Shown: positions 36,329 through 64,000 of the stretch, piece after piece
Numbering within the stretch: position 1 is the stretch's first letter
How the letters are laid out: each line of letters opens with the position of its first letter
Assembly (NCBI GenBank): GCA_947565305.1
Contig: CANOFO010000002.1
Span: forward strand, 3,039 to 67,038
From: an uncultured Lachnospiraceae bacterium
Lineage (GTDB): Bacteria; Bacillota; Clostridia; Lachnospirales; Lachnospiraceae
Length of the DNA: 64,000 nucleotides
Direction of reading: 5' to 3'
The notes under the pieces: model-generated
Told to the model about the DNA's origin: nothing
Database searches by the model: none
The model's input: the letters and a program-made list of their open reading frames with translations, nothing else
Program-made: the position numbers and the translations under genes

Positions 36329-36380
36329 ACTATTATCCTCTGCATACTAATATTCTGTATCTACGCTAACACTGATTAAA

Positions 36381-46166: not shown

Positions 46167-47960
46167 TTATGACCACATATTTGCCGGCATATAGCGGGCA
46201 GACATTTTCCATTTCATAAACTCCGTGGAACCGCTTCCTGTCGTGAAATACTCAATCGCATCCAGAATATCCCTGTTAACATGTTTCTTATTTACAAAAA
46301 ATCCTTCCGCGTTCTGGACAACATCCGCATTTTCCGGTCCGATAGCAAGCAGCTTCTCTACCATCTCTCTCAGTTCCACCTTCTTGCATTTATAGACATT
46401 GCCAAAGGGAATATCTGCGAACCGGCTTGGTTTCACATCAGGTATCAGCCAGTCCTTAACTGCAATGCTTGGTTTGCCGAACAGCAGCCCTTCCACCATA
46501 ACGCTGGATTCATCCGAAACGATAATATCACACATCATCAATGCCACCATAATGCTCTCTTCTGACTCAATATAATGCAGATTATCATAATGCCCCTCAT
46601 GAAGCTTACGCATATCCGCAATGTTCTTAACAATATCCTCGTACCCTTTGGGCGGCCATGCAGACTGTTTGACGATAAGATTGACTGGCAGCGATGACAA
46701 TGCACGTACGAAATCATCTTCTTTCTCATCACATTCCCAGGACGGAGCATACAGTACGGTAATCTTATGCTGCAGGTCCATGCTTTTTCTCAGTTCCTCT
46801 ACCCGCTTATGCAGTTCTTCCGAAAATATCTCAACGCTTTTGGGATAGCCTAGCATATATGCTCCACAGCGGGGATTTACATAATATTGAAATGCACATC
46901 GCTCCCATTTATCTTTCCAATCCTCCCCTGGAACAATGCCAATGTCATAGGCATTCCAACGTTCCATCTCCCATATGTTGGGCCATCTGAGATGCCCTTG
47001 TGCCATATCATGCAGCAAGACCAGGGAAAACCTGGAATTCTGCGGTTTGCCAACATGCTGGCAATAAACCCCGATTTCCGCCTTTTCATCCAGATTATCA
47101 GTGTGCCTTACTTTATATCCTCTTGTCTTGGCGTATTCCGCAATCGGCAGCATATTATAATATTCACCTTTCTCCGTGGCAAAAAAAGTAATCTCTTTCT
47201 TCAGCTTCCTATCTTCGACAGGTAAATCCTGCAGCAAATATCTGTGCTCTGCGGAAAGGCCGTTGGGAGTATTTTTAAACTGCTGCCAGCCATGATTCCT
47301 GACAAACACCTCCATTTGGCTTTGAAACAGCTCTGTCTGCTTCTTTAGCTTTGCCTCGTCAAACCGCTCGACAAAAGTTCCCACCAGCGCTACTTCCAGC
47401 AGTGCCATGACCCTTCCCTGCAGAATCTCAAACAGCAGAAAAGCTTTCTGCATTGCCGGATTTTGCTCTGTCTGATATTGCTGCAGATTGTCCATGCACA
47501 ATTTTACTTTTTCCCGATGGAACATGGTAGTGGTCAGGCTGCCCAACAGATTATGCCCTTTTTCCAGACAGACGCGCAATACCTGATTTCCCTCAAAAAT
47601 CGTGTCCCGAAAAACTCCTAAATATCCGCCATCCTGATACGCAACTATTGTGCCATCTCCCTCAAGATATACCCTGTTACAGAAGATAACTGCCGTCCCG
47701 CCTACTCCTTCTGCCAACTGTTCGATTTTCTCCGCATATTCCACCATACGCTGGATTTTATTGGCCGCCAATATCTGGTCTGCCTCCAGAAAACAGATAT
47801 AATCACTGTCTGTCGTCTCACAATAATCTACAATATCCTGATAAAACTCTTTGCCCGTTACGGCCTCAACAACCTCTAAATTCTCATAAGTCTGCTTTAT
47901 CAGCACATTGTCAATATAATCCGAGGTACAATCTATACATATCACTGAAACCTTCTTCAT
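46167..47960 (-). CDS. GT2-like domain plus TagF/CDP-glycerol phosphotransferase-like domain; paralog of 61263-63152
   Basis: GYPKS, VLYAPSW, DIIVSDESSV..E.LLFGKP; start moved to ATG 47960 after AGGAGG. Confidence 0.65.
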   Translation of the reverse strand: MKKVSVICIDCTSDYIDNVLIKQTYENLEVVEAVTGKEFYQDIVDYCETTDSDYICFLEADQILAANKIQRMVEYAEKIEQLAEGVGGTAVIFCNRVYLEGDGTIVAYQDGGYLGVFRDTIFEGNQVLRVCLEKGHNLLGSLTTTMFHREKVKLCMDNLQQYQTEQNPAMQKAFLLFEILQGRVMALLEVALVGTFVERFDEAKLKKQTELFQSQMEVFVRNHGWQQFKNTPNGLSAEHRYLLQDLPVEDRKLKKEITFFATEKGEYYNMLPIAEYAKTRGYKVRHTDNLDEKAEIGVYCQHVGKPQNSRFSLVLLHDMAQGHLRWPNIWEMERWNAYDIGIVPGEDWKDKWERCAFQYYVNPRCGAYMLGYPKSVEIFSEELHKRVEELRKSMDLQHKITVLYAPSWECDEKEDDFVRALSSLPVNLIVKQSAWPPKGYEDIVKNIADMRKLHEGHYDNLHYIESEESIMVALMMCDIIVSDESSVMVEGLLFGKPSIAVKDWLIPDVKPSRFADIPFGNVYKCKKVELREMVEKLLAIGPENADVVQNAEGFFVNKKHVNRDILDAIEYFTTGSGSTEFMKWKMSARYMPANMWS

Positions 47961-48122
47961 AAATCTTATCCTCCTGATTGTTGTCTGCAGGTCTCCTTCT
48001 TCATATTCTACCATAGGAACTATGAAAAATCAGCAAATTCCAATTATTTTCTTGTGAATTAGTTTCAATTCAAGGCACATTTTACGTCACACGAAAAAAC
48101 CAAAATATCTACATTCCCAACA

Positions 48123-49205: not shown

Positions 49206-50302
49206 AACGTTTCCCTCCGATTCCAATAGGTTCGAATCTGCTCCACAATCTTTTCCGCGGAATGTCCATCCCCAAAAGGCTGATAAGATAAATCAAATTG
49301 AACCGGTGCATCCAGTTTGGCAAGGATATCCTCTTTTTGCGGCTTTGCCAGCCGGTTACAGCCATTTACCATCGTTTCCGGCCATACTGCCCAATCGAAT
49401 ACGGTGACACAAGGCTTCTGGGCAAAGAATGCCTCGCGCTGCAGCCCGCCGGAGTCAGTTACAATTTTTTTTGCACGGTTTACCAGCGAAATGGATGTTT
49501 TATAGCCCACAGGCAAGGTCAGGATTATGTTTTCATACCCACCAGTTTCCCGCAAATGGGCTGCCCGTCCCTGATTGCGGGGATGGACAGGATAAATCAC
49601 CCGAGCATCCAGACTGTTCATCGCCTTGAAAATCTGATCCAGCTTCTCATCGGTATCCGTGTTCTCCTGCCGATGGCAGGTCATGTAGTAAAAATCCTCC
49701 GGCAGGGAAACAGGGCTGCCGTCAAATCCCTTTAATTCCCCGAGCTCGCTCCCATCCAGCCGCGCACTGCAATAGCGGAACGCATCATACATGGGATCAC
49801 CCACCAAATGGATGCTGGATGAAAAGCCTTCTCGCTTCAAAAAATTCACACCGGAGACCGTGCACACCAAGTGGAGGGAAGATACATGATCCGTAAGGAT
49901 ACGGTTAATCTCTTCTGGGTTTTCGCGGATACCACCCCCCCGGTTTCCGGCCTCTACATGGCAGACTGGGATATGCAGCTTCACCGCCGCCAGCGCACCT
50001 GCCAGGGTAGAATTGGTATCACCAAACACCAGCAACATATCTGGGCGCTCCTGAAGCAGCACTTTCTCAATCTCTATCAGCATCTGACCAGTCATCTGAC
50101 CGTGAGTGCCGCCGGAGATGCCCAGATTATAATCCGGCTTGGGGATATCCATTTCTTCAAAAAATATGCCAGACATATTATGGTCATAATGCTGTCCGGT
50201 ATGTATCAGCACCTCCTGGAACTCTCGGCGCAGTACCCGGGACACCATCGCAAGTTTAATGAACTGGGGCCGCGCACCCACCAGAGTACAGATTTTTTTC
50301 AT
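49202..50302 (-). CDS. wbpI: Non-hydrolysing UDP-sugar 2-epimerase (WecB/WbpI-like)
   Basis: VGARPQFIK, HTGQHYD, FGDTNSTL, HVEAG, PEEINR, TDSGGLQREA. Confidence 0.85.
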   Translation of the reverse strand: MKKICTLVGARPQFIKLAMVSRVLRREFQEVLIHTGQHYDHNMSGIFFEEMDIPKPDYNLGISGGTHGQMTGQMLIEIEKVLLQERPDMLLVFGDTNSTLAGALAAVKLHIPVCHVEAGNRGGGIRENPEEINRILTDHVSSLHLVCTVSGVNFLKREGFSSSIHLVGDPMYDAFRYCSARLDGSELGELKGFDGSPVSLPEDFYYMTCHRQENTDTDEKLDQIFKAMNSLDARVIYPVHPRNQGRAAHLRETGGYENIILTLPVGYKTSISLVNRAKKIVTDSGGLQREAFFAQKPCVTVFDWAVWPETMVNGCNRLAKPQKEDILAKLDAPVQFDLSYQPFGDGHSAEKIVEQIRTYWNRRETL

Positions 50303-51622
50303 TTACAACACCTCAATATATTCCCGGTTCTGAACCGCTTTCATTACGTTTTTGCAGTCAAACACTGGCACTCCCACACCGGCTACCAGTTCATAGTCTA
50401 CCTTGCTGTGGGCAGTGGTGACAACCACCAGGTCATATCTGCGGAGCGTCTCTTCATCGAGTTTCTCCACTCCCTGATACTGCCGTCCCTTATACCGGCA
50501 GGCAGGGACAAAGGGATCATGGTAGTCCACCAGCGAGCCGTTACGCTGAAACTCCTCCATTACCCGCAAGGCGGGGCTCTCCCGGCAGTCGTTAATATCC
50601 TGCTTGTAAGCCACCCCCAGCAGCAGCACCTTGGAACCGTTCAGCGCCTTTTTCTCTCGATTGAGAATCTTCCCTGCCCGCTCCACGGCGTATTCCGGCA
50701 TACGGTCATTAATCATCATGGAACTTTCAATCATAGAGGTGTGGAAACCGTACTCCCGGGCCTTCCAGCTCAGATAATAGGGATCCAGCGGGATACAGTG
50801 CCCGCCCAGACCAGGACCTGGATAGAAAGGCTGAAAGCCATAGGGTTTCGTTTTGGCTGCATCGATGACTTCCCAAATATCAATTCCCATCGTGTGGCAC
50901 AGCATGGCCAGTTCGTTCACCAGGCCAATATTCACGTTGCGGTATGTATTTTCCAGAATCTTCTCCATCTCCGCCACAGCGGGAGAAGATACCTTATGAA
51001 CCTCTCCGTCCAAAATGGTGGAATATACCATAGCAATCACCTCAGCGGCATCAGCGCCCACAGCCCCCACGACTTTAGGGGTGTTGCTGGTCTTGTAAAT
51101 CAAGTTGCCCGGATCCACACGCTCCGGTGAAAAACCCAAATAAAAATCTGTTCCGCATTTCAAACCGGAACCTTCCTCCAAAATGGGTTTGAGCAGTTCC
51201 TCTGTAGTACCGGGATAGGTGGTGGACTCCAATACCACCACGCTTCCCCATGTCAGATAGTTCGCAATGGCCTTTGCCGATTCCAAAACATAGCTGATAT
51301 CCGGCTGCTGGTGGGCATCCAACGGTGTGGGAACGCAGATTGCAATAAAGTCCACATCTTTCACAAAGGAAAAGTCCGAAGTGGCCCGAAGCATCCCGGA
51401 GGACACCAGCTCCTGCAGGTCAGCGTCCACCACATCGCCGATATAATTCTCTCCGGCGTTAACCATATCTACCTTTTTCTGCTGGACGTCGAAGCCAATA
51501 GTGCGAAAGCCATGCTTGGCCTTGTCCACCGCCAGGGGCAGACCGACATAACCCAGACCGCAGACGCCCATGGAAAGCGTTTTATTTTTAATTTTTTCAA
51601 GTAAAGTTTCCTTAATATTCAT
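50303..51622 (-). CDS. wbpA: UDP-GlcNAc 6-dehydrogenase (WbpA-like)
   Basis: GLGYVGLP, ICVPTP, ESTTYPGTT, SPERVDPGN, GPGLGGHCIPLDP, RESP. Confidence 0.88.
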   Translation of the reverse strand: MNIKETLLEKIKNKTLSMGVCGLGYVGLPLAVDKAKHGFRTIGFDVQQKKVDMVNAGENYIGDVVDADLQELVSSGMLRATSDFSFVKDVDFIAICVPTPLDAHQQPDISYVLESAKAIANYLTWGSVVVLESTTYPGTTEELLKPILEEGSGLKCGTDFYLGFSPERVDPGNLIYKTSNTPKVVGAVGADAAEVIAMVYSTILDGEVHKVSSPAVAEMEKILENTYRNVNIGLVNELAMLCHTMGIDIWEVIDAAKTKPYGFQPFYPGPGLGGHCIPLDPYYLSWKAREYGFHTSMIESSMMINDRMPEYAVERAGKILNREKKALNGSKVLLLGVAYKQDINDCRESPALRVMEEFQRNGSLVDYHDPFVPACRYKGRQYQGVEKLDEETLRRYDLVVVTTAHSKVDYELVAGVGVPVFDCKNVMKAVQNREYIEVL

Positions 51623-51654
51623 GTCAAATCATTTCCTCAATATTGTTATAAATG

Positions 51655-54342
51655 CTACTTTTTAAATAAGCTGACCAGCAGGTTACTGAATTTTTCCGCA
51701 CCATTTTGGGACAAATGGTCCGTATCTACAAAGTCAGAAGGCTCAAAACAGGTAAACTGGTTAAAATCTACAAAACAGAATTCCTCAGATACTGCCGCAA
51801 TCAATTCGTTGATACTCTCTTTCATCTCTTTCGAGATATATTGCCTATATTCAGGGGTAAACGGTGCGATTATAACGATAGGCATAATCCCATTGAGGTG
51901 AAGAAAATGGACATATTCATTTAATATCTTTTTGTTCTCCGCTATTGTCAGCTTATTCTGAAATATTTTGTTGTGGCCCTCCGCGCGGGTTTTTCCAAAC
52001 GCCTGACGCTCATCAGCTGATAAATCCCACCAATCACGCTCCAATCTAAAAATCGTACCGCCGCGCTGCTTCCCTTCTGAAAAAAACGTACCGCGTTTCA
52101 GCATTTTTTCTATTGCAAGCTGTTCGCATTGACGCTTGTCCTCGTCTGAAAAGACATTCAATCCTGCCCATAAATCATTCTGCTGCACATCTTCCCAGCT
52201 ATGTCCATCTTTAAAAACAGGGTAATACACATTGGAAACCATTACTTCACGCTCCTTCCGTCCACGAGAGAGATCATGGCCGGCAAGGTAATAACCGCCA
52301 ACGATAAAACATTTGGAAAAACGGCCCGGCTGACCACCTGAGATTGCTCTGCGGGCACATTGAAAGTCATAGTACAAATCTTGAGACGATGAGGAGCAAT
52401 TGACCGCTTGCTCCCAGGACGATTCAATAATTCCATTCAATGCATAAGACGACCCTGTAATGAGTGTAGCATTGGGACCCGACACCTCCGTCGCTTTGCC
52501 AAGCATCGCTTTCAGCCATACATAATAATAGTTTTTTTGCAAAAACAGTTCAGAAACTTGATTTAAGTCGGTCTGTCGGGCATCCCCGGCCATAAAGTTT
52601 GTGAGATTCCAGCTTGCCAAATCTCCCTGCCTGGCACCACAACTGCTGACAACCGCAGATAACACTCCCGACAGCTGCTCCGTCAGCGCCCTACGCTCAA
52701 ACCGCTCAATTGCCGGGGAATGGAGCAGTTCAGAAACCTCGCCCTGCTCCCATTTCCGATACTCTCGGAGAATCATTGCTTTAATTTCGGATAATTGCGT
52801 ACTGAGATATGCTTCCCCATGGCCGCTCTCTCGGAGCGTCTCGCCCACTGCGCTGCCTTCAGGGGCCAAAGCCAGGATAGGCCGGCCGCTCCGCAGGTAT
52901 TCAAAAAACTTCCCTGTATAAACGGATTTGAATTTTGGCTCGTCACCCACCAGCAGCAGAAGCAGGTTGGCATCCAGATTCGCCTGGAGCGCTTCCTGAT
53001 GGGATAAGTAACCCTTAAAGTCGATAATTGACTCCAGCCCATATTTTCCTGCTTCCTCAATCTTTCCTGTCTCAGCCTCACCGATGACCCGAAACCGAAC
53101 CTTGGATAAATCTATTTCTTTTTCCTCCCGCAACTGCCGGATTGCCTTCAGAATCGGCGTAATGTGTCTCTGTTGGGTGTAAAGAAGCCCGCTGTAGTTA
53201 ATGGTAAACTTGTCCGTCCGAGTTTGGGGAATATGCAGCATGGCGAAATCATCTTCGTCATATCCGTTTGTAATGCTGACAATCTTTTCTTGCGGAAGCT
53301 GGAACTGCTCTACATAAGATGGAATGAAACTATCTCCAATCGTCAGATTACAGTCCGCCTGATGCAGCAATACCTTCTCCAGCTCATACAGCAGCCTGTT
53401 TCCCGCGTCAGATGGGTCGTAGTCTTTCTTATAGGCATTAAAGGTCCATGGATCGCGGTAATCCGCCACCCATGGGATTCCATATTTCTGCTGTAAATAG
53501 AAACCAATCAGATGGGCGCTGTAAGGACCTGAGGTGGTATAGACCACCTGAAATTCGTCCGGGTCCATGTTCTTCTCAATATATTGGATTACATCATAGG
53601 CCCAGGACAGCGCCGTACAAGGAAAATTAAGCAGCCGCCTAATTCCCTTCTCGTTCTGAAACGCATGGGAATATATCCAGTCCGCCACCGGGCTGAAACG
53701 CAAAATGCTGTGTAGGAAATTCAGAATCCGCTGAATTCGTTCCATACTCATCAAGGTCTCCCGACCGGTGCTGACCCCATCGGGAATGCGTACCACCTGC
53801 ATCCCCGCGGGAATTTCCTTCAGCTGGCTGGCATCGGCAAAATTCCATCCGTTAGGCGGCTGATCGGTGGAAATCACCGTAGGCTCCCAGCCAAATTGAG
53901 TCAGGTATTTGGCAAACTTGATGGAGCGGAACACCCCAGAGCCGGACAGCGGAAGGAAAAAATAAGCAGCCATCAATACCCTCCCCCCTTTCTGCTCCCC
54001 CAGCTGCTGGCGCAGCCCGGCGATATAGCCATTTAATTCCCCATTGTCCGAATTTTGCTGGCAGCGTTCCAGCATTCCCAATGCCCGTCGGTTCATGCCA
54101 AGGACGGCATAGGTGTCGGCTAAATTATAGAGAACTTCCGGATTGTTCGGCTGCTGTGCCATTGCAGCCTCGAAAAAGGTACGCGCCTGTCTGGATTGGC
54201 CGCAATGAGCGCACATGATGCCCATCAGATTCTGAATCTGCCACTGCTGGCGCTCTTCCTTGGACAAAGCTTCAACGAAATCCAACGCTTCGGACAATTT
54301 GCCCCTTGAAATCAAATCTTCTAACGTTTGAATCGATTCCAT
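51655..54342 (-). CDS. TPR-GT4 glycosyltransferase fused to a C-terminal SGNH/DltD-like domain
   Basis: TPR N-terminus; AYFFLPLSGSGV, WVADYRDPW, NGYD, GKFFEYL; ITGSSY...SSSQDLYY...DTDHL. Confidence 0.8.
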   Translation of the reverse strand: MESIQTLEDLISRGKLSEALDFVEALSKEERQQWQIQNLMGIMCAHCGQSRQARTFFEAAMAQQPNNPEVLYNLADTYAVLGMNRRALGMLERCQQNSDNGELNGYIAGLRQQLGEQKGGRVLMAAYFFLPLSGSGVFRSIKFAKYLTQFGWEPTVISTDQPPNGWNFADASQLKEIPAGMQVVRIPDGVSTGRETLMSMERIQRILNFLHSILRFSPVADWIYSHAFQNEKGIRRLLNFPCTALSWAYDVIQYIEKNMDPDEFQVVYTTSGPYSAHLIGFYLQQKYGIPWVADYRDPWTFNAYKKDYDPSDAGNRLLYELEKVLLHQADCNLTIGDSFIPSYVEQFQLPQEKIVSITNGYDEDDFAMLHIPQTRTDKFTINYSGLLYTQQRHITPILKAIRQLREEKEIDLSKVRFRVIGEAETGKIEEAGKYGLESIIDFKGYLSHQEALQANLDANLLLLLVGDEPKFKSVYTGKFFEYLRSGRPILALAPEGSAVGETLRESGHGEAYLSTQLSEIKAMILREYRKWEQGEVSELLHSPAIERFERRALTEQLSGVLSAVVSSCGARQGDLASWNLTNFMAGDARQTDLNQVSELFLQKNYYYVWLKAMLGKATEVSGPNATLITGSSYALNGIIESSWEQAVNCSSSSQDLYYDFQCARRAISGGQPGRFSKCFIVGGYYLAGHDLSRGRKEREVMVSNVYYPVFKDGHSWEDVQQNDLWAGLNVFSDEDKRQCEQLAIEKMLKRGTFFSEGKQRGGTIFRLERDWWDLSADERQAFGKTRAEGHNKIFQNKLTIAENKKILNEYVHFLHLNGIMPIVIIAPFTPEYRQYISKEMKESINELIAAVSEEFCFVDFNQFTCFEPSDFVDTDHLSQNGAEKFSNLLVSLFKK

Positions 54343-54344
54343 AT

Positions 54345-55487
54345 CTATATCCTCGTTTCTGTTAAAATCTCATGAATATTATCTATCACCTCATCGCATT
54401 CTTCCTGCAGCATATATGGCGACAGCGGCAATGAAAGGACTGTCTCACACAACCTGACGGTATTTTGATTTCTGCCGCTTTGGCAGTTACCGCCGGCAAA
54501 TGCCTGCTGTTCATGCATTGGCTTCCAGTAATATATCATCACAGGTATCCCACGCCTACCAAGTTCCTCCTGCAGCTTTGCCCTTTCCTCCTGGCAGTCC
54601 AAGCGGATTGTATACTGCGCCCAGCTTGACTTATAGCCGGACAGTATATGGGGGACTCCCACCAAGCCTTTTAATCCCTGCGTATATATTTCGGCAAATT
54701 TATTTACCTGCTCTATCTCCTTATCCCGAAATGCTGCCAACTTAACCTTAAGGATTGCTGCCTGTATGCTGTCCAGCCTGGAATTCATGCCAATCTGAAT
54801 ATTATCATATTTGCCTTGGGATGATTTCCCATGGACACAGAGCGAGCGGATTTTCTGATTCCAGCTATCGTTATCGGTAAATACGGCTCCCCCATCGCCA
54901 TAGCAGCCCAATGGCTTTGCCGGAAAAAACGATGTGGTCGATATATCCCCAAAGCTGCAGGCGGACTTATCTCCAATACGCCCGCCAAACCCTTGTGCGC
55001 CATCCTCAATTAGGTACATTCCATATTCCTTTGTAACCTGGCATATCCTACCATACTCTGCCGGCTGTCCAAACAAATCCACGGCAATAACCGCCCCCGG
55101 TCTGTATTTCCCTTGTGCGGCTACCGCTGAGACAGCCGCCTTAAGCGCTGGCGCAGATATATTATAAGTATCCGGTTCCACATCCACAAAAACCGGCAGC
55201 GCCCCCACCGTGGAAACAACCTCCCCAGACGCAAAAAATGTGAAATCCGGCACAAACACGGCATCCCCCGGACCTATATCCAGCGCCCGCAACGCCAGTT
55301 CCAGCGCATCCGTTCCATTGCCACAGGAAATACAATGCCGGCAGCCCACATACTGCGCCAATGCTTCTTCCAATTCCCTGACAACACTGCCGGAAATAAA
55401 TCTGCCCGATTGCAGCACCTGGGAAATGGCTCCATCTATCTCCTCTTTTAAATATTGATACTGTCTCTGCAAATCCCGAAATTCCAT
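54345..55487 (-). CDS. wbpE: DegT-family aminotransferase (WbpE/WlbC-like)
   Basis: NGTDAL, IEDGAQGFG, TSFFPAKPLGCYGDGG, NSRLDSIQAA, SSWAQYT. Confidence 0.85.
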   Translation of the reverse strand: MEFRDLQRQYQYLKEEIDGAISQVLQSGRFISGSVVRELEEALAQYVGCRHCISCGNGTDALELALRALDIGPGDAVFVPDFTFFASGEVVSTVGALPVFVDVEPDTYNISAPALKAAVSAVAAQGKYRPGAVIAVDLFGQPAEYGRICQVTKEYGMYLIEDGAQGFGGRIGDKSACSFGDISTTSFFPAKPLGCYGDGGAVFTDNDSWNQKIRSLCVHGKSSQGKYDNIQIGMNSRLDSIQAAILKVKLAAFRDKEIEQVNKFAEIYTQGLKGLVGVPHILSGYKSSWAQYTIRLDCQEERAKLQEELGRRGIPVMIYYWKPMHEQQAFAGGNCQSGRNQNTVRLCETVLSLPLSPYMLQEECDEVIDNIHEILTETRI

Positions 55488-55500
55488 CTTACTGTCCCTC

Positions 55501-56061
55501 TTATACCAGACCTTTTCCCATTATGGTATTCTCATATTTGCTCTTGCATCTGTCACAGATGCCGTCTTCATCCAGCCGATTACCACATGCACACACCCAA
55601 CCGGCAATTTCCGCCGGTACGCCCAGGACCAACGCATTATCAGGGACATCTCTGGTGACAACCGCCCCCGCCCCGACCATGGCGTATTTGCCTATCGTTG
55701 CACCGCAGACAATGGTTGCGTTCGCGCCTATCGTTGCCCCCTCTTTGACCAACGTTTTTTTATAGTTTGCCCTGCCCTTCGGGTATCTTGCCCGCGGCGT
55801 CAAATCATTGGTGAATACACAGGACGGTCCGCAAAATACGCCATCTTCAAGGACAACGCCCTCATAGAGGGATACGTTGTTTTGGATTTTGACATCGCTG
55901 CCTACGGTCACATGATTCGCCACATTTACATTCTGTCCCAGGGAACAATTATTCCCAATATGGGCTCCCGACTGTATGTGGCAAAAATGCCAGATTTTCG
56001 TACCCTCTCCAATATAGACGTCTTCCTCTATATAACTGCTTTCATGCACAAAATATCCCAT
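55501..56061 (-). CDS. wbpD: Hexapeptide-repeat N-acetyltransferase (WbpD/WlbB-like)
   Basis: KIWHFCHI, SLGQNV, KIQNNVSLYEGV, FCGPSCVFTND..PR, GWVCACG. Confidence 0.9.
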   Translation of the reverse strand: MGYFVHESSYIEEDVYIGEGTKIWHFCHIQSGAHIGNNCSLGQNVNVANHVTVGSDVKIQNNVSLYEGVVLEDGVFCGPSCVFTNDLTPRARYPKGRANYKKTLVKEGATIGANATIVCGATIGKYAMVGAGAVVTRDVPDNALVLGVPAEIAGWVCACGNRLDEDGICDRCKSKYENTIMGKGLV

Positions 56062-56135: not shown

Positions 56136-56144
56136 CAACACTCT

Positions 56145-57125
56145 TTACCTTTTTGGTTCATCAATAAGTTCCAGATATTCCCGGTACTCAAATGTTGGGC
56201 TTCCCAAATACTTATTGCTTCTGTATTCCGGTACTTCTTCCCTCACCGTCTGCTGCATTTCCTGAAGATGCCCCTCTTCCAGCTTTAATTCACAGCTTTC
56301 AGCAAAATACAGCGTCTCAATGAAATACGAAAAGACAAAATAATATTCGATTTCTTCCCGATACTTCTCCCACAATCCGGCACGACTTTTGATATCCCGA
56401 AACACGGATAGCTGCACCAGGGCATGGTCATAGAGTTTGCCCGGTTGGCGCACATACTGATGCATCGTGGAAGCCTCATGCATCCGATAATAATACAAAG
56501 GCTCCTTGGTGCAGTACACACGCTCAGCATAAAACAGCAGCGGATAGACAAAAGAGGGCTCTTCATAGGCATGTCCCTCGATAAACCTCACCTGGACCTG
56601 CTCTAAGAATTCCCTCTTATAAAACTTCGTCTGGCTGCCGCAGGTCAATGCCTGCCCGGCGAGGAACAGCTTGCGCATCTCTTCGTCCTCCAACACAATC
56701 AGCCCCTTAATCTGCGCCGGGTCCTCCACCTGTACGACGCCCTCGTAATATTTTGTCATGGGGTACTGAATCATCTCCGTATCGTACTGTTTGGCAATAT
56801 TATATAATTTTTCATAAATAGTTACATCCACCCAATCGTCTGCATCCAGAAATGCCACATATTCTCCCTGGGCATGTGCAAGCCCCACGTTCCTTGCACC
56901 GCCCTGTTTGCGGTTCTCAGGCAGGTGAAATACCCGGAGATTGTCCGGGTATTGCTCCGCCATGGCATCCAGAAGGCTGCCTGTACTGTCTGTGGAGGCA
57001 TCATTGACACAGATAACATCCAGGGTTTCAAATCCAATGCTCTGACAAATCAATGATTCCAGGCACTGGGACAGATATTCTTCCGCATTATAACAGGGAA
57101 TGATTACTGATACTTTTTTCATCAT
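56145..57125 (-). CDS. GT2 glycosyltransferase
   Basis: VSVIIPCYN, VNDASTD, QGGARNVG, FLDADD; similar to 40385-41482. Confidence 0.92.
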   Translation of the reverse strand: MMKKVSVIIPCYNAEEYLSQCLESLICQSIGFETLDVICVNDASTDSTGSLLDAMAEQYPDNLRVFHLPENRKQGGARNVGLAHAQGEYVAFLDADDWVDVTIYEKLYNIAKQYDTEMIQYPMTKYYEGVVQVEDPAQIKGLIVLEDEEMRKLFLAGQALTCGSQTKFYKREFLEQVQVRFIEGHAYEEPSFVYPLLFYAERVYCTKEPLYYYRMHEASTMHQYVRQPGKLYDHALVQLSVFRDIKSRAGLWEKYREEIEYYFVFSYFIETLYFAESCELKLEEGHLQEMQQTVREEVPEYRSNKYLGSPTFEYREYLELIDEPKR

Positions 57126-57193: not shown

Positions 57194-58240
57194 TTATAAG
57201 TTCATAATATTAAGAAATCTTTCCAGACTATATATGAGAAATCTTTGTTCTCCAGTAAGCCCATTAACACAATCTGGTTTGAACTCCGGTCTTTGGGGTC
57301 CGCACCAGTCCCTCATCCAATTGTCAACCGCCCGCACCATTGCTATCTTTTCCGGCACTTCAAATGCTGGAAATTTCTTTTTATACAGCTCTCTAAGCAA
57401 ATACTTACTCTCTCCTGCCCTCACACGGTTCAAGTCCAAATCATCCGCCATTTTCAAACGAGCATATGGGTCAAGATAGCTGATACCTATACAGTCAAAA
57501 GCATTTAAATATGCTCCAGATGAAGATGAGGCAAATATCTCATTTATAAATTTTATAAAATCGACCCCAGAGCTGCCCTTTTTATACCTCTCATAAACAT
57601 CTAAAACGCTGACTGCATTTTTCAAAACATCCTCAGGAGGCACAAATGTGTATCGTTCTACCCATTCCTCAAACGTCCAGTCTTTTGACAATAAGCGGTC
57701 CATCCCCCCAAATGCCATGTCAGCATTGTCACCTAAAACAATAACCTCATTCCCATCTTCTTTTATTCTCTTAGAAATGGTATAGACCTGAGGCTCATTG
57801 GCAAATACCGGACATCCGTCATGTATCATCAGCTTATCTATGCACTCTTCATAGTCGCTCCATGCCACCTCAACAACAATATGCTCTAATCCTGTTTCTT
57901 TGCAAATTTTTTCCGCACGCTTCACTTCTAAATCAGATGACGGATTGGGATTTACCACAGTATAGGCACGTACTCCTTTGGGCATATATGCCGCAAGGAT
58001 GCCAGAATCAATGCCTCCGCTTAAAAGAAGCGCCGTCTTTTCCGGCACAATGCCCTGAAGCTGCTCCTTAATAATCCTGTCTATATCATCGCTGGTTTTG
58101 CAGGCAATTTTATCTTCTTCCGGAATGAGCTGCATTGCGGCAGGTTCAATTCCTTCCCTCCATGTGAAATTATGATTTGCTATATACCGAAATGTCAAAA
58201 AGGAACTCATACAATAATTCTTATCAATCGTTTTTTCCAT
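57194..58240 (-). CDS. Asparagine-synthetase C-terminal (ATP-pyrophosphatase) domain protein without a glutaminase domain
   Basis: PP-loop LLLSGGIDSG, LGDNADMAFGG, ESKYLLRE, PEK; only 348 aa. Confidence 0.82.
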   Translation of the reverse strand: MEKTIDKNYCMSSFLTFRYIANHNFTWREGIEPAAMQLIPEEDKIACKTSDDIDRIIKEQLQGIVPEKTALLLSGGIDSGILAAYMPKGVRAYTVVNPNPSSDLEVKRAEKICKETGLEHIVVEVAWSDYEECIDKLMIHDGCPVFANEPQVYTISKRIKEDGNEVIVLGDNADMAFGGMDRLLSKDWTFEEWVERYTFVPPEDVLKNAVSVLDVYERYKKGSSGVDFIKFINEIFASSSSGAYLNAFDCIGISYLDPYARLKMADDLDLNRVRAGESKYLLRELYKKKFPAFEVPEKIAMVRAVDNWMRDWCGPQRPEFKPDCVNGLTGEQRFLIYSLERFLNIMNL

Positions 58241-58285
58241 TTACAGCCTCCTACTTTCTACAGTTGACTTGCGTATTCCCATTCT

Positions 58286-59020
58286 TTAAACATTTTTGTA
58301 CATGTACACATCAAACACAAATTGCTTATTCCAATATCCATCGAGCTTCGAGGTTGTTATTTTTATATCCATTCCATGTTCCGCTGCAAATTCCACAAAA
58401 AACTGCTTATCATAAAACAGCTTCTGCAGCCCTTCATACTTTATGTCATAATCCGGTATGATGGATCTTTTATTTTCTATATATGCATTCTCTTTTGACA
58501 AATCATGTACATCCAGCACCGTAACACAATAAGATGATTTTTCGTACATCTTATTTAAAACTTCATATGCATACTCATAATCTGAAAAGTATTCAAACAT
58601 ACTGTTTGTAAATACGCAATCATACTTTATATCTGTTTTCATGCAAATGGCTTCATCACAGTAAATTTCATCAGGATTGTCCAAAACCTCGCTCGCAGCT
58701 TCTATATGCGGCTGGGAATAATCCATTCCTCCTACCCTATATCCGTCTTTTTCCAGTAAAAATAAAAACGGACCGCTTCCACATCCCGCCTCAAAGACGC
58801 TTTTTATTTCATCCCTGTCTCCCTTAAAATTCCTCAGCATGAATTCGTATTGTTTCTTAAACGCCCCATAACCCATTCCATCGGCAAGCGTATCATTTCC
58901 ATCTACCCTTTTCAATTCCATAAACACAGATTCAATATCTCCTGATGTCAGAAGATTTTTATCCGCTTTTTTCTTGCTCCAGATTTCCTGCCACTTCTTC
59001 ATATTTACTTTTTCACTCAT
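58286..59020 (-). CDS. Class I SAM methyltransferase
   Basis: FEAGCGSG, GMDYS, NSMFEYF. Confidence 0.85.
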   Translation of the reverse strand: MSEKVNMKKWQEIWSKKKADKNLLTSGDIESVFMELKRVDGNDTLADGMGYGAFKKQYEFMLRNFKGDRDEIKSVFEAGCGSGPFLFLLEKDGYRVGGMDYSQPHIEAASEVLDNPDEIYCDEAICMKTDIKYDCVFTNSMFEYFSDYEYAYEVLNKMYEKSSYCVTVLDVHDLSKENAYIENKRSIIPDYDIKYEGLQKLFYDKQFFVEFAAEHGMDIKITTSKLDGYWNKQFVFDVYMYKNV

Positions 59021-59028
59021 ATTAACAC

Positions 59029-60279
59029 CTATTCCTTACTATGTATATTTTCTAAATAAACCAATTTAATGGCTACCGCAATTACGTGCATTGCCTTTTC
59101 CAAATCTGAAACGGAAGGATATGTGGGAGCCAGCCTGAGATATGCATCCTCAGGATCGTTGCCGTAAGGAAATGTCGATCCTGCTTTCGTAATCATCACC
59201 CCCGCATCCATACATTTCTCCCATACGCTCTTAGCCATATGAGGAGCCATTTTCAGATTAAAAAAATATCCCCCTTCGGGCTTGTTCCAATCCGCTATCT
59301 CCCATCCATCTAATTCTTCATGGAGAATCTGGTCTACCATGTCAAATTTAGGCCCTATAATCGCCCTATGCCTTGACATATGTTCCTCCAAACCATCTAT
59401 GTCCCGCAGAAACAGATAATGACGGTATTGATTAATCTTATCGCCGCTTTTCAGCTGGAGCAAAGAGTTCTCTGTCAGCCATTTAATATTTTCAGCACTC
59501 GATGCACAAACCCCTACTCCGCCTCCCGGAAATGTAATCTTAGATGTTGATGTAAACTCAAACACTCTGTCGGGATTGCCATATTCAGCAGCTTTACGGA
59601 TAATATTCAAAATTGTATGCTTCTTATCTGTAAGATGGTGTACGCAATAAGCATTATCCCAAAAAATCCTAAAATCAGCAGCTTTCGTCTCCATTGAGGC
59701 AAGCCTCAAGATAACTTCATCCGAATAAACCGCCCCCGTGGGATTGGAATAAAGCGGAACACACCATATTCCCTTTACCGTCCCATCTTCCTGAACAAGT
59801 TTCTCAACCAGGTCCATATCCGGTCCATTCTCATCCATGGGAATCGGTATCATGTTGATGCCAAACGTAGTGCAGATTTTAAAGTGTTTTTCATACCCTG
59901 GCGCTGGACAAAGAAAGCTGACTTTCTCGTAATCCTTCCACGGCTTGTTTCCATCTAAGCCAAAAAGTACTGCCTTATTCACAATGTCATACATTAAAGT
60001 AGTGCTCATGGTCCCCCCAATGTATATTTCCTCAGACGACACATCCAGCACCTTGGCAAATAAATTCTTTAACGGCTCAATACCTGCTGTTCCCGCATAA
60101 CTCCGATAATCCACTTCCTGTTCCAGACTCGTTGCAGACGTAACAAGATTCAACATCTCCATAGATAAATCAAGCTGTTCCCTGCATGGCCAGCCGCGTT
60201 CCATATTAAGCTGCAGACGCTGGTCACAAAATTTACGGTATCTATTTTCTAATTCCTCATATGTCTCCCTACTGTTCAT
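59029..60279 (-). CDS. PLP aminotransferase of the actinobacterial-type aspartate aminotransferase family (Rv3722c/AspT-like)
   Basis: LNMERGWP..EQLDLS, FLCPAPGYEKHF, WCVPLYSNPTG, WDNAY, STSKITFPG, DKINQYRH, RLAPT. Confidence 0.82.
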   Translation of the reverse strand: MNSRETYEELENRYRKFCDQRLQLNMERGWPCREQLDLSMEMLNLVTSATSLEQEVDYRSYAGTAGIEPLKNLFAKVLDVSSEEIYIGGTMSTTLMYDIVNKAVLFGLDGNKPWKDYEKVSFLCPAPGYEKHFKICTTFGINMIPIPMDENGPDMDLVEKLVQEDGTVKGIWCVPLYSNPTGAVYSDEVILRLASMETKAADFRIFWDNAYCVHHLTDKKHTILNIIRKAAEYGNPDRVFEFTSTSKITFPGGGVGVCASSAENIKWLTENSLLQLKSGDKINQYRHYLFLRDIDGLEEHMSRHRAIIGPKFDMVDQILHEELDGWEIADWNKPEGGYFFNLKMAPHMAKSVWEKCMDAGVMITKAGSTFPYGNDPEDAYLRLAPTYPSVSDLEKAMHVIAVAIKLVYLENIHSKE

Positions 60280-61034
60280 TCCGGCTCCTTCCCAAAAATT
60301 TCCTCCGCAATTTTCAAATCTGCCGCATCATCAATCTCAAACCATTTCATACCCGCAGAGCCCAGACCATAAACTGTCTGGGGAAAATCCCTTACAATCC
60401 CTTGCATTGCAGACTCTAACGGCGCCTTTCCATTTTCAATATCGCAGAATTTTTGGACATACATTTTTAATGTATGTGCTACAAACTCCCTGTCAAATTT
60501 ATGAATATTGATTGTTTTAAATTTATCCTCAATGGTAAAGTCACTTTCCCTCATGCTCTTATGAATCCAGTCAGTTACATATCCATTATCATCTATTTTC
60601 ACAAATGAACCATCCAGATTAGGTTGATACTTCTCCAACAAAGTCACATTAGCAGCTTTGCAATCGTCAATCCTCTTTAACAGCCCAGGGCTGAAAAACA
60701 CATCTCCCTCCAGGACAAACAGGCTGTCATATTCAGAAATATTCTTCAAACCGATATTTAAGGAACAGGATGTATTTGTTGCCGCATAATCATCGTTTTC
60801 AGCATAACGAATCTTCAATCCATGAAATTCATCTCCTATGTCATCTCTTATCTTATCTGCTAGATAACCAACCACAAGAAGCGCTTCCGATACGCCTACC
60901 ATCTTCAGGCATTCGAGCGCATTATGTAAAATCGGCTTATCATTTACTTTCGTTAAGCATTTATGGTTATTTAAGGTCAGCGGCTTAAGCCTTGTCCCCA
61001 TTCCCGCCACCAGAATAATAGCTTTCTTTCTCAA
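60276..61034 (-). CDS. LicC/PntC-like nucleotidyltransferase (probable phosphonate cytidylyltransferase)
   Basis: AIILVAGMGTRL, HKCL, VVGYL, NDDY..TN...SL, EGDV, WFEIDD..DL; TTG start 9 nt after GGAG. Confidence 0.8.
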   Translation of the reverse strand: MRKKAIILVAGMGTRLKPLTLNNHKCLTKVNDKPILHNALECLKMVGVSEALLVVGYLADKIRDDIGDEFHGLKIRYAENDDYAATNTSCSLNIGLKNISEYDSLFVLEGDVFFSPGLLKRIDDCKAANVTLLEKYQPNLDGSFVKIDDNGYVTDWIHKSMRESDFTIEDKFKTINIHKFDREFVAHTLKMYVQKFCDIENGKAPLESAMQGIVRDFPQTVYGLGSAGMKWFEIDDAADLKIAEEIFGKEPE

Positions 61035-61106
61035 AATTCATTACTCCAATCTATATCTAATTATATATGCGTCAATATACTAATTACAGACAAAATCTAA
61101 TAATTT

Positions 61107-61135
61107 ATATTACCATAAGTTCTTTTAGTTGTAAA
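61107..61135 (-). promoter_or_regulatory. SigmaA promoter TTTACA-17-TAATAT with extended TG, for the 61034 operon
   Basis: Exact spacing in the divergent intergenic region. Confidence 0.62.
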
Positions 61136-61168
61136 TAACTCCCCTCTTCTGAGATTCTCCATTTCTTA

Positions 61169-61197
61169 TTGAAAAACCAATATATATATATTATAAT
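61169..61197 (+). promoter_or_regulatory. SigmaA promoter TTGAAA-17-TATAAT with an (AT)6 tract in the spacer
   Basis: Near-consensus boxes; ATATATATATAT at 61180-61191. Confidence 0.72.
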
Positions 61198-61262
61198 TTT
61201 TAAATGGGTAAAAATGAAAAGGAGGAAACTGGTGTCACGAAAAAAACCAGTATATTAAAACA

Positions 61263-63152
61263 ATGAACTCAGACTCACCACAAAAAGAAATGCAGCAAAT
61301 AATCCGTGAATGCATGAACAGCCATTCCTACCAGACGGCAACTGAGTGTTTAAGTATCTATCAAAAAACATTTGGCCAAGATGCTTTCTACTTGGAATAT
61401 AAATTAACGCTTAACTGTGAAAACGGTCCTTCTATATCACTCATTTGTATGGAAAACGATGCCTCTTCTGTCAATAATTTCGTGGAACAACAACAATACA
61501 AGAATCTTGATGTATTTTATGTTCCGTCTGCTGACTGCGTAAACGATATCCTCGCTTACATTCAATCTGCCAACAGTAAATATGTCTGCTTTTTTGAACC
61601 CAACCATAAATACTCTGCTTTAAAATTAGCCACGATGGTAACTCTGATAGACCACCTGCCAGAAGTGGACGGCATTGTTTGTAGCCGCAACTTCATTGAC
61701 GCAGAAGATGCAATTATTGCGCACCCGGATATATGCCAGAAATCCTTAAATAACAAAGTATTTATGGGCAATCAGCTCTTATTTTTAAGCATAAAAAACA
61801 ATATAAATTTATATGGTAACCTTTCCACACTTTTATTGGAAACCCAATACATAAAACAGATTTCGATTGATTTTTCTGGAATCCCTTCTTCTATGTACAA
61901 ATTAGCGCTATTCCACCAATTAATTTTCCATGCTACGATTTATTTTACAAATATGCCATTAGTATCCACTGTCCTGAGACCTAACGACAATTCTTCTTAT
62001 CTGGTGGAAGACTATAAGAAATATCTGGAATCACTTGTATCCGATGATGAAGTTATGGCAGCAGCCATGGACAAATTGAATAAATGTAAACAAGGTGGCA
62101 GCAGCCCTGTTCAGAAGAACATTACTTTTTTCTATACGGACAAAGGGGAATATTATAATCTAAAACCGATTGCAGACGAAGCCGAAAGACGAGGCTATAA
62201 GATATCTTTTACCGAAGATATCAAACAGAAAGCTGAGATAGGTATTTACTGCCAGCATGTTTGCTATCCTGAAAATTCCAAATTTTCAGTTATCCTGCTG
62301 CATGACCTTGCCCAGGGCCACTATCGCTGGCCCAATATGTGGGAATTGGAACGCTGGGACAAATTTGACCTGGGAATCCTGCCCAGCAAATCCTGGGCAG
62401 ACCGCTGGTCTCAATGCGCCTGCCAATATTATGCAAATCCAAGTTGCGGCGTATTTGACTTCGGCTATCCCAAAAGCGACCTTATCCATTCTGAAGCGTT
62501 AAAAAGCCGAGCCGAGAAACTCCGGCAGGAACTGAATCTGAAACATGACATTTCTATCCTTTATGCACCTTCCTGGGAAAACGATGGAAAGGAACATGAT
62601 TTTGTAACATCGCTTTCCTGTTTAAATGTAAACCTGTTGATTAAGCAGGCCCACCTTCCGGCAGAAATGTCTGAAATCATTGAAAACATACGGCAAATGC
62701 GTGCTTTACACGAAGGCAAATACCCAAACGTATATTATATCGAACCAGAAGAAAGCATTCAGACTGCCCTTTCACTGTGTGATTATGTCGTATCAGACGA
62801 ATCAAGCGTCATGAGCGAGGCTGCTATGTTTGGCAAAATAAGTATTGCTGTTACAAACTGGCTTATCCCTGATACCGTACCCAGCAGACACGCATATTTT
62901 CCTATGGATTATGTTATAAAATGCCGCAGATCCAAACTTTACGAGACTGTGAATAATCTGCTCGCTGCCCCGGAAACATACAGCGATATCCTGGAACTGG
63001 GACGCCAGGACCTCTCCAGTCCTGGCCATGTCTGCAAAAACATCATGGATGCCATTGAATTTTATACAACACCAGAAGCTGACAGAGCTCCATCTTCGTT
63101 CTGCCATGAAAAGCTTACATCAAAGTATGCTCCTTGTTCCATGTGGAATTAA
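61263..63152 (+). CDS. Helical N-terminus, GT2-like and TagF-like phosphotransferase domains; only plus-strand gene; paralog of 46167-47960
   Basis: ITFFYTDKGEYYN, KAEIGIYCQH, LLHDLAQGH.RWPN.WE.ERW, GYPKS, ILYAPSW, VSDESSV. Confidence 0.75.
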   Translation: MNSDSPQKEMQQIIRECMNSHSYQTATECLSIYQKTFGQDAFYLEYKLTLNCENGPSISLICMENDASSVNNFVEQQQYKNLDVFYVPSADCVNDILAYIQSANSKYVCFFEPNHKYSALKLATMVTLIDHLPEVDGIVCSRNFIDAEDAIIAHPDICQKSLNNKVFMGNQLLFLSIKNNINLYGNLSTLLLETQYIKQISIDFSGIPSSMYKLALFHQLIFHATIYFTNMPLVSTVLRPNDNSSYLVEDYKKYLESLVSDDEVMAAAMDKLNKCKQGGSSPVQKNITFFYTDKGEYYNLKPIADEAERRGYKISFTEDIKQKAEIGIYCQHVCYPENSKFSVILLHDLAQGHYRWPNMWELERWDKFDLGILPSKSWADRWSQCACQYYANPSCGVFDFGYPKSDLIHSEALKSRAEKLRQELNLKHDISILYAPSWENDGKEHDFVTSLSCLNVNLLIKQAHLPAEMSEIIENIRQMRALHEGKYPNVYYIEPEESIQTALSLCDYVVSDESSVMSEAAMFGKISIAVTNWLIPDTVPSRHAYFPMDYVIKCRRSKLYETVNNLLAAPETYSDILELGRQDLSSPGHVCKNIMDAIEFYTTPEADRAPSSFCHEKLTSKYAPCSMWN

Positions 63153-64000
63153 CTATATTTCATCAATCAAAGTTATAATATCTTTGATTGGCATCAGTCT
63201 CTCGTCCACTTCTTTGGCCCTGTGGTAAGTAAGTATGTCCGTAGCCGTTTTCTGCATGGCAGGAAATGCGCTGCGGGTAAGCTGATTAGCATAAATTACA
63301 ATATTTACCCCATGTTGATAAAGTTCTTGTTCTGTAACAGAATTATAGGAAGTCGGAACAGCGACAATCGGCGTTTCCTTATCCGTTTTTCGGAACCTGT
63401 CACAAAATTCAAATACTTCGTCCGCTTCTTTTTTCCTGCTATGAATCATAATGCCATCTGCCCCTGCTTTTACATAAGCCTCTGCACGGCTTAATGCATC
63501 ATCCATGCCTTTCTCCAGGATTAAACTTTCTATTCTGGCAATAATCATAAAATCTTCTTCTCGCTGCGCTCTCTTGCCGGCACGGATTTTTTCACAGAAA
63601 TTTTCCACACTGTCCTGCGTCTGTTCTACTTCCATACCGAACAAAGAATTTTTCTTCAATCCCGTCTTATCCTCGATAATCACGGCAGATATTCCCATAC
63701 GTTCCATCGTCCTCACATTATAGGAAAAGTGTTCAATCAGACCGCCGGTATCTCCATCCAGAATAATCGGCTTTGTAGTCACTTCTAAAATATCATCCAC
63801 AGTCCTTAACCTTGATGACATATCTACCAATTCAATATCTGGCTTTCCTTTGGCAGTAGAATCACAGAGGCTTGACAGCCACATTGCGTCAAATTGGTCG
63901 ATTTCCCCATCATGAGAAACGACTGTCTTCTCAGCAATCAACCCGGTTAAGCCGCTATGTACTTCCAATGCCTTGACTATCGGACACAGTTTTAGCAATT
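63153..64000 (-). CDS. pepM: Phosphoenolpyruvate mutase (5' end outside the window, probably fused to a cytidylyltransferase)
   Basis: Diagnostic EDKxxxxxNS ([10 protein letters not shown]), [43 protein letters not shown]. Confidence 0.93.

Follow-up and report, generated by a model that had tools for sequence, protein, structure and literature searches.

What becomes of phosphonopyruvate at a phosphonate locus that lacks a phosphonopyruvate decarboxylase (Ppd)? This question is raised by a 64,000-nt stretch of DNA from an uncultured Lachnospiraceae bacterium (assembly GCA_947565305.1, here G000; contig CANOFO010000002.1, positions 3,039 to 67,038), which we refer to as the window. At its right-hand end, the gene for phosphoenolpyruvate (PEP) mutase, pepM, lies together with genes for an aminotransferase, a cytidylyltransferase, a methyltransferase, an amide ligase, and a TagF-like protein. 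PepM converts PEP to phosphonopyruvate, and the phosphonoglycans known so far carry 2-aminoethylphosphonate (AEP), 2-hydroxyethylphosphonate (HEP), or relatives made through Ppd. Phosphonoalanine (PnAla), on the other hand, is known from small antibacterial peptides. A first-pass annotation of the window had proposed that PnAla is made here, activated with CMP, and put on a glycan. Comparative genomics supports this proposal, with a target that is linked to flagellin in some loci and is a Wzx/Wzy polysaccharide in others. We consider it probable that the pathway leads from PEP via phosphonopyruvate to PnAla, which would then be CMP-activated, tailored, and transferred to a flagellin or polysaccharide glycan. 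That PnAla is formed at all is, judged from the genes, very likely; the final carrier is less certain.

Linkage to pepM and exclusion from ppd genomes

All five minus-strand genes from pepM to the asparagine-synthetase-like gene are intact where the annotation had placed them, and family scans bear out their labels. The window contains the C-terminal part of pepM (63153..64000, minus strand; TIGR02320, PF01467 and PF13714). Its reading frame extends 457 nt beyond the window in the contig sequence, to window-equivalent position 64457, and encodes a 434-aa fusion of a PF01467 cytidylyltransferase with PEP mutase. The mutase reaches 418 bits with TIGR02320 (cut-off 320), contains the EDKX5NS motif as [10 protein letters not shown], and is encoded by the sole pepM copy of the assembly. 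As had been noted, neither Ppd nor an AEP transaminase is encoded near pepM: the contig genes upstream of it are sugar-pathway genes (CDP-sugar, methyltransferase, glycosyltransferase), with no decarboxylase among them. The rest of the assembly (83% complete, 202 contigs) likewise contains no Ppd or AEP transaminase above the family cut-off; Ppd, AEP transaminase, and other thiamine diphosphate (TPP) enzymes gave weak matches only, to other families.

The aminotransferase belongs to a clade of its own (described below), the distribution of which was compared with that of ppd. Among 400 genomes of the same family (≥90% complete), 52 carry pepM, 49 of them together with ppd. The clade, defined by a score >700 bits (housekeeping copies reach at most 523), occurs in two of the three ppd-less pepM genomes and in none of the 49 with ppd. 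In both genomes, G344 (97% complete) and G430 (99%), it adjoins pepM and ppd was not found. In the third genome without ppd, a gene for an Ldh_2 dehydrogenase takes the place next to pepM. Among 40 congeners, 14 carry pepM and 12 of these also ppd; the clade is present in one of the two without ppd and in none of the 12. The sole carrier among the 40 is G458 (99% complete), with one pepM and no ppd. Its neighboring genes (pepM, TagF-like, nucleotidyltransferase [NTP], aminotransferase, methyltransferase, ligase, GT2 glycosyltransferase, second TagF-like) are 82-93% identical to those in the window, and its pepM lies on the other strand than here, co-directional with the TagF-like gene. Pooled over 66 pepM genomes, the clade was found in three of the five without ppd and in none of the 61 with it (Fisher p 2e-4, which is overstated because related genomes are not independent). 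No clade member was detected in 300 family genomes searched with the window protein, and none was found away from pepM in these 300, the 52 pepM, and the 40 genus genomes. In a scan of GTDB contigs, 78 of the 80 loci among the matches listed were housekeeping copies without pepM, a result from which no frequency is derivable.

A clade-specific DNA motif retrieved 20 metagenome loci. pepM adjoins the aminotransferase gene in 18 of them, and the other two are contigs of 1.1 and 2.7 kb. Together with the genome-derived loci, they form 15 groups at 90% identity (14 plus G458). pepM is linked to the clade aminotransferase in 14 of the 15 groups (within 3 kb in 12), in G458 across two genes (TagF-like and NTP) and in G302 because the aminotransferase contig overlaps exactly, over 106 nt, with the ends of two contigs that carry pepM and the cytidylyltransferase gene. 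A cytidylyltransferase is present in 14 groups. In 11 groups, a gene of the LicD or TagF type lies no more than 5 kb away; the remaining four are short or stop at a contig edge. The asparagine-synthetase-like ligase occurs in 11 groups, the methyltransferase in seven, a GNAT protein in four, a formyltransferase in three, and an Asp/Glu racemase in two; gene order varies between the groups. Thus, of the five genes whose co-occurrence the first-pass annotation had wanted examined, pepM, the aminotransferase, and a dedicated cytidylyltransferase stay together across shuffled orders, whereas the methyltransferase and the amide ligase are optional. The core of the module is pepM, aminotransferase, cytidylyltransferase, and a LicD- or TagF-type transferase, and the module recurs in rodent and other gut bacteria. 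BLAST with a Ppd query, sensitive enough to pick up a Ppd of 33% identity elsewhere, gave no match in any of 27 module stretches. Moreover, 12 module pepMs are scattered on a FastTree phylogeny of 42 PepMs, with at least three forced changes at well-supported branches. Therefore, the aminotransferase cassette has been paired with several pepM lineages and is not one inherited block.

The module occurs, among other settings, in flagellar loci, as in the G430 group with a flagellin gene on either side, and in polysaccharide clusters with wzx/wzy (G302, L145). In G302 (L123, L124, L012), a pepM-NTP-aminotransferase-GNAT cassette occurs twice, in two different wzx-containing clusters, with a TagF-like gene upstream of one copy and licD upstream of the other. 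In G430:C2 (L185:80-12805, L184:14868-20000), six LicD-family genes lie between the two flagellin genes in addition to the module, together with genes for CTP_transf-GFO, GFO, a class-V aminotransferase, GNAT, and formyltransferase. No glycosyltransferase was recognized between these flagellin genes; the LicD proteins might modify flagellin directly, or glycosyltransferases might lie elsewhere.

Some pepM genes without ppd are found in other company. At L186:8052-11966 (G348:C11), such a pepM lies with genes for LicD, an NTP transferase, and an Ldh_2 (PF02615) dehydrogenase in a polysaccharide cluster, which is likely a phosphonolactate decoration made via a dehydrogenase family other than VlpB. 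pepM copies without a recognized coupling enzyme nearby were seen at L187:9034-10338 (G224:C12) and in L238 (G483:C164). The G224 copy is the second one of its genome, and G483 (94% complete) has two pepM genes and no ppd that could be found.

The aminotransferase clade and its pocket

The 416-aa aminotransferase (59029..60279, minus strand) had been assigned to the AspT/Rv3722c family. This label is right: the protein matches PF12897 and reaches 560 bits with NF053594, "aspartate aminotransferase type Ic" (cut-off 435), while its PF00155 match is of part length and 42 bits. By this family match, the clade residues, the linkage to pepM, and the exclusion from ppd genomes, it is a predicted phosphonopyruvate transaminase. 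The assembly encodes a second PF12897 protein on another contig, a housekeeping copy with 43% identity. At least 120 protein clusters share 59-81% identity with the window enzyme, whereas ordinary clostridial copies reach 52%. A profile of 108 clade clusters matched one 50%-identity representative at 762 bits, with the next at 507 (among 1.84 billion). A quick, unrooted tree was made from 40 clade and 50 housekeeping sequences, with the groups chosen according to how similar they are to the query; a single branch (SH-aLRT 100) separates the two.

We compared the 120 best clade clusters with 98 housekeeping copies residue by residue. The residues that bind pyridoxal phosphate (PLP) and the alpha-carboxylate (Y61, N179, D208, K247, R382) are invariant in all 120 and all 98 sequences. 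Four other positions separate the groups: W30 is found in 119 of 120 clade members (K in 92/98 housekeeping copies), and E130, K131, and K277 in all 120 (D, R, and I in 98/98, respectively). This combination is absent from the other 149 listed representatives. In a HMMER alignment to 6u78, these residues correspond to Lys38, Asp140, Arg141, and Ile287* of Rv3722c. In the Rv3722c structure, Arg141 is described to salt-bridge the side-chain carboxylate of the substrate and Asp140 to form a pair with Arg36, while the other subunit contributes Ile287* to the pocket lining (PMC7181641). Likewise, Arg39, Lys41, and Arg144 are described to hold the distal carboxylate or citrate in CgAspAT (PMC4927141). 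The RGKP-to-RGWP and YDRH-to-YEKH changes pointed out in the annotation are therefore real and map to the side-chain-carboxylate pocket of the solved type-Ic enzymes: the recognition residues Arg141 (Rv3722c) or Arg144 and Lys41 (CgAspAT) are not kept, and Lys131 and Trp30 are found instead. In a dimer model, residues 28, 30, 131, and 274-283 lie at the subunit interface (score 0.95, best control 0.00). The mark applied to this score is reached by 20 of 30 solved homodimers and one of 23 monomers, the runs agree to 98%, and pLDDT is 94 or higher; since similar dimers have already been solved, the model shows likeness only.

The clade thus has the common fold, the PLP lysine, and the alpha-carboxylate residues of Rv3722c and CgAspAT and passes the type-Ic cut-off, but its gene is an extra copy beside pepM and not the housekeeping gene, and Lys, Glu, Trp, and Lys stand for Arg141, Asp140, Lys38, and Ile287*. 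Because the catalytic residues are kept and the side-chain pocket is rebuilt, the clade is predicted to be an active PLP enzyme for an alpha-keto/amino acid with an altered side chain. That this side chain is a phosphonate is what we infer. The signature NMERGWP, YEKH, and LQLKxGDK would then predict the product from sequence, and the clade would be a branch-point enzyme from PF12897, which inventories built on PF00155 can overlook or label wrongly.

Proposed activation, tailoring, and transfer

In the proposed pathway, PepM provides phosphonopyruvate from PEP, the established reaction of the family to which it is assigned; the reactions that follow are predictions. The clade aminotransferase would transaminate phosphonopyruvate, with Asp or Glu as the probable donor, and would replace Ppd as the reaction that pulls PepM. 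This step is proposed because of the linkage to pepM, the exclusion from ppd genomes, and the pocket residues. Transamination as a route to PnAla, as the annotation had assumed, is already established for other enzymes: PnaA is reported to form PnAla from phosphonopyruvate and Asp and to drive PepM (Cui, Zhang, Ju 2024, PMC11867202).

CMP-PnAla could be formed by the LicC/PntC-type cytidylyltransferase (60276..61034, minus strand, 252 aa; PF00483/PF12804) or by the PF01467 domain fused to PepM, a fusion that leaves two candidate cytidylyltransferases at the locus. The best PDB match of the former is LicC (1jyk, E 6e-16, residues 2-115), followed by PntC (6pd1, E 2.7e-5), and sugar-phosphate nucleotidyltransferases also match it. 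The cytidylyltransferases of the module loci are 44-82% identical to this protein over nearly the full length, whereas those of ppd loci reach at most 39% over part of it. Such a separate, module-specific subgroup is as expected if the cargo is a different one. CMP activation is described as common in phosphonate surface tailoring and was shown for AEP (PMC6697681).

Several optional reactions may tailor the product: methylation at this locus, formylation or acetylation elsewhere, amidation of the carboxyl group by the asparagine-synthetase-like ligase with ammonia or another amine, and L-to-D racemization in some loci. The accessory enzymes (ligase, racemase, GNAT, formyltransferase) would need an amino acid as substrate. 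The methyltransferase (58286..59020, minus strand, 244 aa) was correctly labeled, since it is a class I SAM methyltransferase by Pfam, and in L136 it is fused to the cytidylyltransferase. Its family occurs in three of the 52 pepM genomes, all of the ppd type, and once directly after ppd. The acceptor is more likely an amine or a phosphonate oxygen than a carboxyl group; formation of a carboxyl ester was set aside because the relatives sit in ppd loci, the products of which lack a carboxyl group.

The glutaminase-less ligase (57194..58240, minus strand, 348 aa) also fits its label, with an Asn_synthase domain only (PF00733) and an invariant PP-loop, SGGIDS. It is not a full asparagine synthetase B (TIGR01536 52 bits, cut-off 267; no N-terminal glutaminase domain), and its model (pLDDT 93) has a fold like the synthetase domain of AsnB (best 1ct9) and the beta-lactam synthetases. 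The family is also found in eight of the 400 genomes without the clade. In nine of nine non-module loci, the ligase is either fused to a TagD-like cytidylyltransferase, recognized through BLAST against PF01467 domains, or separated from it by at most two genes, and LicD, TagF, or a CDP-alcohol transferase is encoded near (L200-L208), often with DUF362. Because of this companion, the ligase seems to amidate small nucleotide-activated acids, and in the module it would amidate the carboxyl group of PnAla. As an observation of its own, the 345-aa glutaminase-less family (L200-L208; window 57194-58240) suggests an uncharacterized pathway to an amidated CDP-linked acid.

In the last step, a TagF-like transferase (here) or a LicD-type one (elsewhere) would release CMP and join the phosphonate to a sugar hydroxyl. 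The candidate here is the 629-aa GT-B protein (61263..63152, plus strand) that abuts the pepM stop. It had been described as inserted, and it does lie between pepM and the nucleotidyltransferase gene, but it is not foreign: in the family sample its relatives occur only in pepM genomes, so we regard it as part of the system. A mobile or invertible insert was rejected, as there are no flanking repeats beyond chance. The protein matches PF04464 with 31.7 bits (cut-off 22.1) over 127 residues, and a model of residues 280-629 from a 10-row alignment (pLDDT 81) has TagF as its best Foldseek match (E 7e-10). Relatives of the C-terminal domain were found in five of the 400 family genomes, all within the 52 with pepM (hypergeometric 3e-5, kinship ignored). 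The relative abuts pepM in G381, follows it in G040, lies two genes away in G002, and is on another contig than pepM in G008 and G131. Since all five genomes have ppd, the family serves phosphonates in general. The gene is likely to encode a CMP-phosphonate:glycan phosphonotransferase, which would name a transferase family for the still uncharacterized last step of phosphonate surface tailoring. The TagF-like FtaD of C. difficile is described to move N-methyl-phosphothreonine from CDP to flagellin GlcNAc (10.64898/2026.02.12.704994), by analogy the chemistry that would be needed at this locus. The carrier here is probably a glycan of the flagellin island, a weak inference drawn from a glycosyltransferase island that ends in a flagellin-family gene.

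Alternative readings, related systems, and the surrounding island

A number of observations weigh against glycan-bound PnAla. In this genome, about 58 kb separate the module from the flagellin-family gene. The pocket loses a Lys (K38 to W) and an Arg (R141 to K) and gains one Lys, so its net charge is not raised and a more anionic group would not obviously be favored. At the sequence level the TagF assignment is weak, and in the fold comparison UDP-GlcNAc 2-epimerases come close to TagF. The families of the TagF-like protein and the methyltransferase are used in ppd-type loci as well, and the AEP locus of G040 also has a racemase, so none of these genes points specifically to PnAla. Two module loci encode a class-V aminotransferase at a distance of 2.6-4.2 kb. 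G301 carries the module plus a separate pepM-ppd locus. The pepM nearest to that of G000 (80%) is the one of G381, where pepM and the TagF-like gene are arranged as here and ppd is found on a distant contig. Absence of ppd near pepM is therefore insufficient alone, and with G000 being 83% complete, it may have an unassembled ppd.

PnAla could be only an intermediate that the clade aminotransferase or a class-V PLP enzyme decarboxylates to AEP, so that the surface bears ordinary (methyl-)AEP made by a Ppd-free route. The families just named as shared with ppd/AEP loci, TagF-like transferase and methyltransferase, fit this idea, as does a PF00266 enzyme near the module in the G430 group and L134, and glycans bearing AEP are known, that of C. 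difficile flagellin among them (PMC8861647). Most loci, however, lack the PF00266 gene. A search at E 1e-20 did not find it in G344 or G301, and in G430 it reaches 170 bits, compared to an AEP-transaminase cut-off of 361. The carboxyl-activating ligase in 11 of 15 groups and the racemase in two also argue against decarboxylation, as do cytidylyltransferases that form a subgroup separate from those of AEP loci, and we regard it as rather unlikely. Similarly, CMP-activated PnAla could end on a lipid, a teichoic-acid-like polymer, or a protein hydroxyl, or as a free small molecule. TagF and LicD families act on teichoic acids too, the G430 stretch between flagellin genes has LicD-family genes and no recognized glycosyltransferase, and in G344 no transferase is seen before the contig end. 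But the loci are located in glycosyltransferase islands or wzx/wzy clusters, and among those neighbors that are annotated, no ATP-grasp peptide ligase, exporter, or CDP-alcohol phosphatidyltransferase was seen. A destination other than a glycan sugar is thus unlikely.

Finally, the aminotransferase might act on another substrate, such as a later keto-phosphonate or a keto-sugar, or supply Asp or ammonia to the ligase, while PepM is pulled by an unlinked or unrecognized enzyme. The incomplete assembly and the unlinked ppd of G381 leave room for such an enzyme, the pocket changes could suit another substrate, and some pepM loci (the second copy of G224, G483) have no visible coupling enzyme. This would have to be reconciled with three clade genomes of 97-99% completeness without ppd, the TPP-domain enzymes of which are on other contigs and do not match TIGR03297. 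In addition, the clade is absent from 61 ppd genomes and, in the family, pepM, and genus samples given above, was not seen away from pepM. We consider this explanation quite improbable and prefer transamination of phosphonopyruvate to PnAla.

The combination of pepM with an AspAT-superfamily transaminase and no ppd, by which the PnAla branch is recognized in genomes, is present here. It is shared with the phosphonoalamide pathway (PnaD PepM, PnaA, ATP-grasp PnaB/C), but the two ATP-grasp ligases typical of that pathway are not among the annotated neighbors in the window, and a cytidylyltransferase and a TagF/LicD transferase in surface-glycan loci are found instead. The inventory of Li & Horsman 2022 defines the PalB-type branch by PF00155, whereas the window enzyme is a PF12897/type-Ic protein and set apart from PnaA by its family description. 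In that inventory, 9.2% of pepM neighborhoods are PalB-type, with phosphonoalamides as the only known products. One of their supplements does not contain PF12897, Lachnospiraceae, or Roseburia; their Dataverse files might list such a cluster.

The Pnt phosphonyl tailoring pathway runs via Ppm-Ppd-AEPT-PntC to CMP-AEP (Rice et al. 2019, PMC6697681) and has in common with our module the PepM-PF01467 fusion, a LicC-like cytidylyltransferase, LicD-like transferases, and glycosyltransferases nearby. In contrast, neither Ppd nor AEP transaminase exceeds its cut-off in G000 (at its 83% completeness), there is no ppd in G458, G430, or G344, the module cytidylyltransferase is of a separate subgroup, and the predicted cargo retains a carboxyl group and a stereocenter. 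AEP is reported on the C. difficile flagellin glycan (PMC8861647). For type A flagellin of that species, FtaABCD is described, with CDP-Thr, the N-methyltransferase FtaC, and the TagF-like FtaD (10.64898/2026.02.12.704994). By this description, FtaB/C/D and our module would have a nucleotide-activated amino acid, a SAM methyltransferase, and a TagF-like transferase acting on a surface glycan in common, but in Fta a phosphodiester to threonine is formed without PepM, compared to a predicted C-P amino acid here.

Glycan-bound PnAla as an undescribed modification, as the annotation had put it, agrees with the literature searched, which covers few subscription papers and yielded no glycan-bound PnAla, CMP-PnAla, or PF12897 phosphonate enzyme. 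Of 41 papers containing "phosphonoalanine", none of the 38 listed is about a glycan, judged by title or start of the abstract, and the accessible part of a 2026 review mentions PnAla in peptides only (PMC13302981). The locus would be a new combination of two known logics, and both the enzyme clade and the likely intermediate appear to be undescribed. PnAla is said to have been isolated from macromolecules and human tissue, with an unclear role (Cui et al. 2024, PMC11867202). If our interpretation is true, glycan-bound PnAla of gut bacteria would be a concrete source of macromolecular PnAla, with a testable pathway. On balance, we lean slightly toward a broader view: a gut-bacterial family may have independently evolved a phosphonopyruvate transaminase from a type-Ic AspAT scaffold. 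CMP-PnAla would be diversified into N-methyl, N-formyl, N-acetyl, carboxamide, and D-forms, and transferases of the TagF or LicD type would attach the product to capsular polysaccharides and to the glycans of flagellin. Phosphono-amino acids would then be a new and variable class of surface decoration in the mammalian gut. One might speculate that phage binding and immune recognition could be influenced where flagellin or capsule carries a stable C-P zwitterion.

The remaining window is a glycosylation island, ended by the flagellin-family gene just outside the left window edge. Near-identical DNA is present in mouse-gut and rat-gut runs of two studies. Contigs of one mouse-gut run bridge the junction between the plus-strand gene and pepM and those of one rat-gut run that between the NTP and plus-strand genes, so the gene layout is not an assembly artifact. 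Relatives that carry names are Lachnospiraceae or Clostridia. A promoter/terminator scan remained at chance level (27 counts compared to 22.8). The module is followed by a GT2 glycosyltransferase gene (56145..57125, minus strand), which is also the neighbor in G458 (91%). At window 56137-56147, the contigs of all four gut runs break; they overlap by 11 nt, and their loose ends resemble inverted repeats. It looks as though the GT2 gene ended, in those strains and not in this assembly, at an insertion element that is flanked by a target duplication of 11 bp. A second TagF-like paralog (46167..48014, minus strand), 40% identical to the plus-strand gene product, is encoded directly after the GT2 gene in G458. 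In the window, a Wbp-like block for a di-N-acetylated uronic acid lies at 48123-56061 (dehydrogenase, oxidase, aminotransferase, acetyltransferase, 2-epimerase), with a GC content of 50% compared to 36-44% for the module. Related genes are found on the opposite side of pepM in G458; therefore, the island has been rearranged. At window 10119-12342, the C-terminal domain of a carbamoyltransferase is split across two overlapping open reading frames and is possibly frameshifted. At window 34994-37202, a CTP_transf_like-Gfo/Idh/MocA fusion adjoins LicD; this pair recurs with a class-V aminotransferase near the module loci L127 and L134, which suggests a second CDP-linked decoration pathway with an unassigned product.

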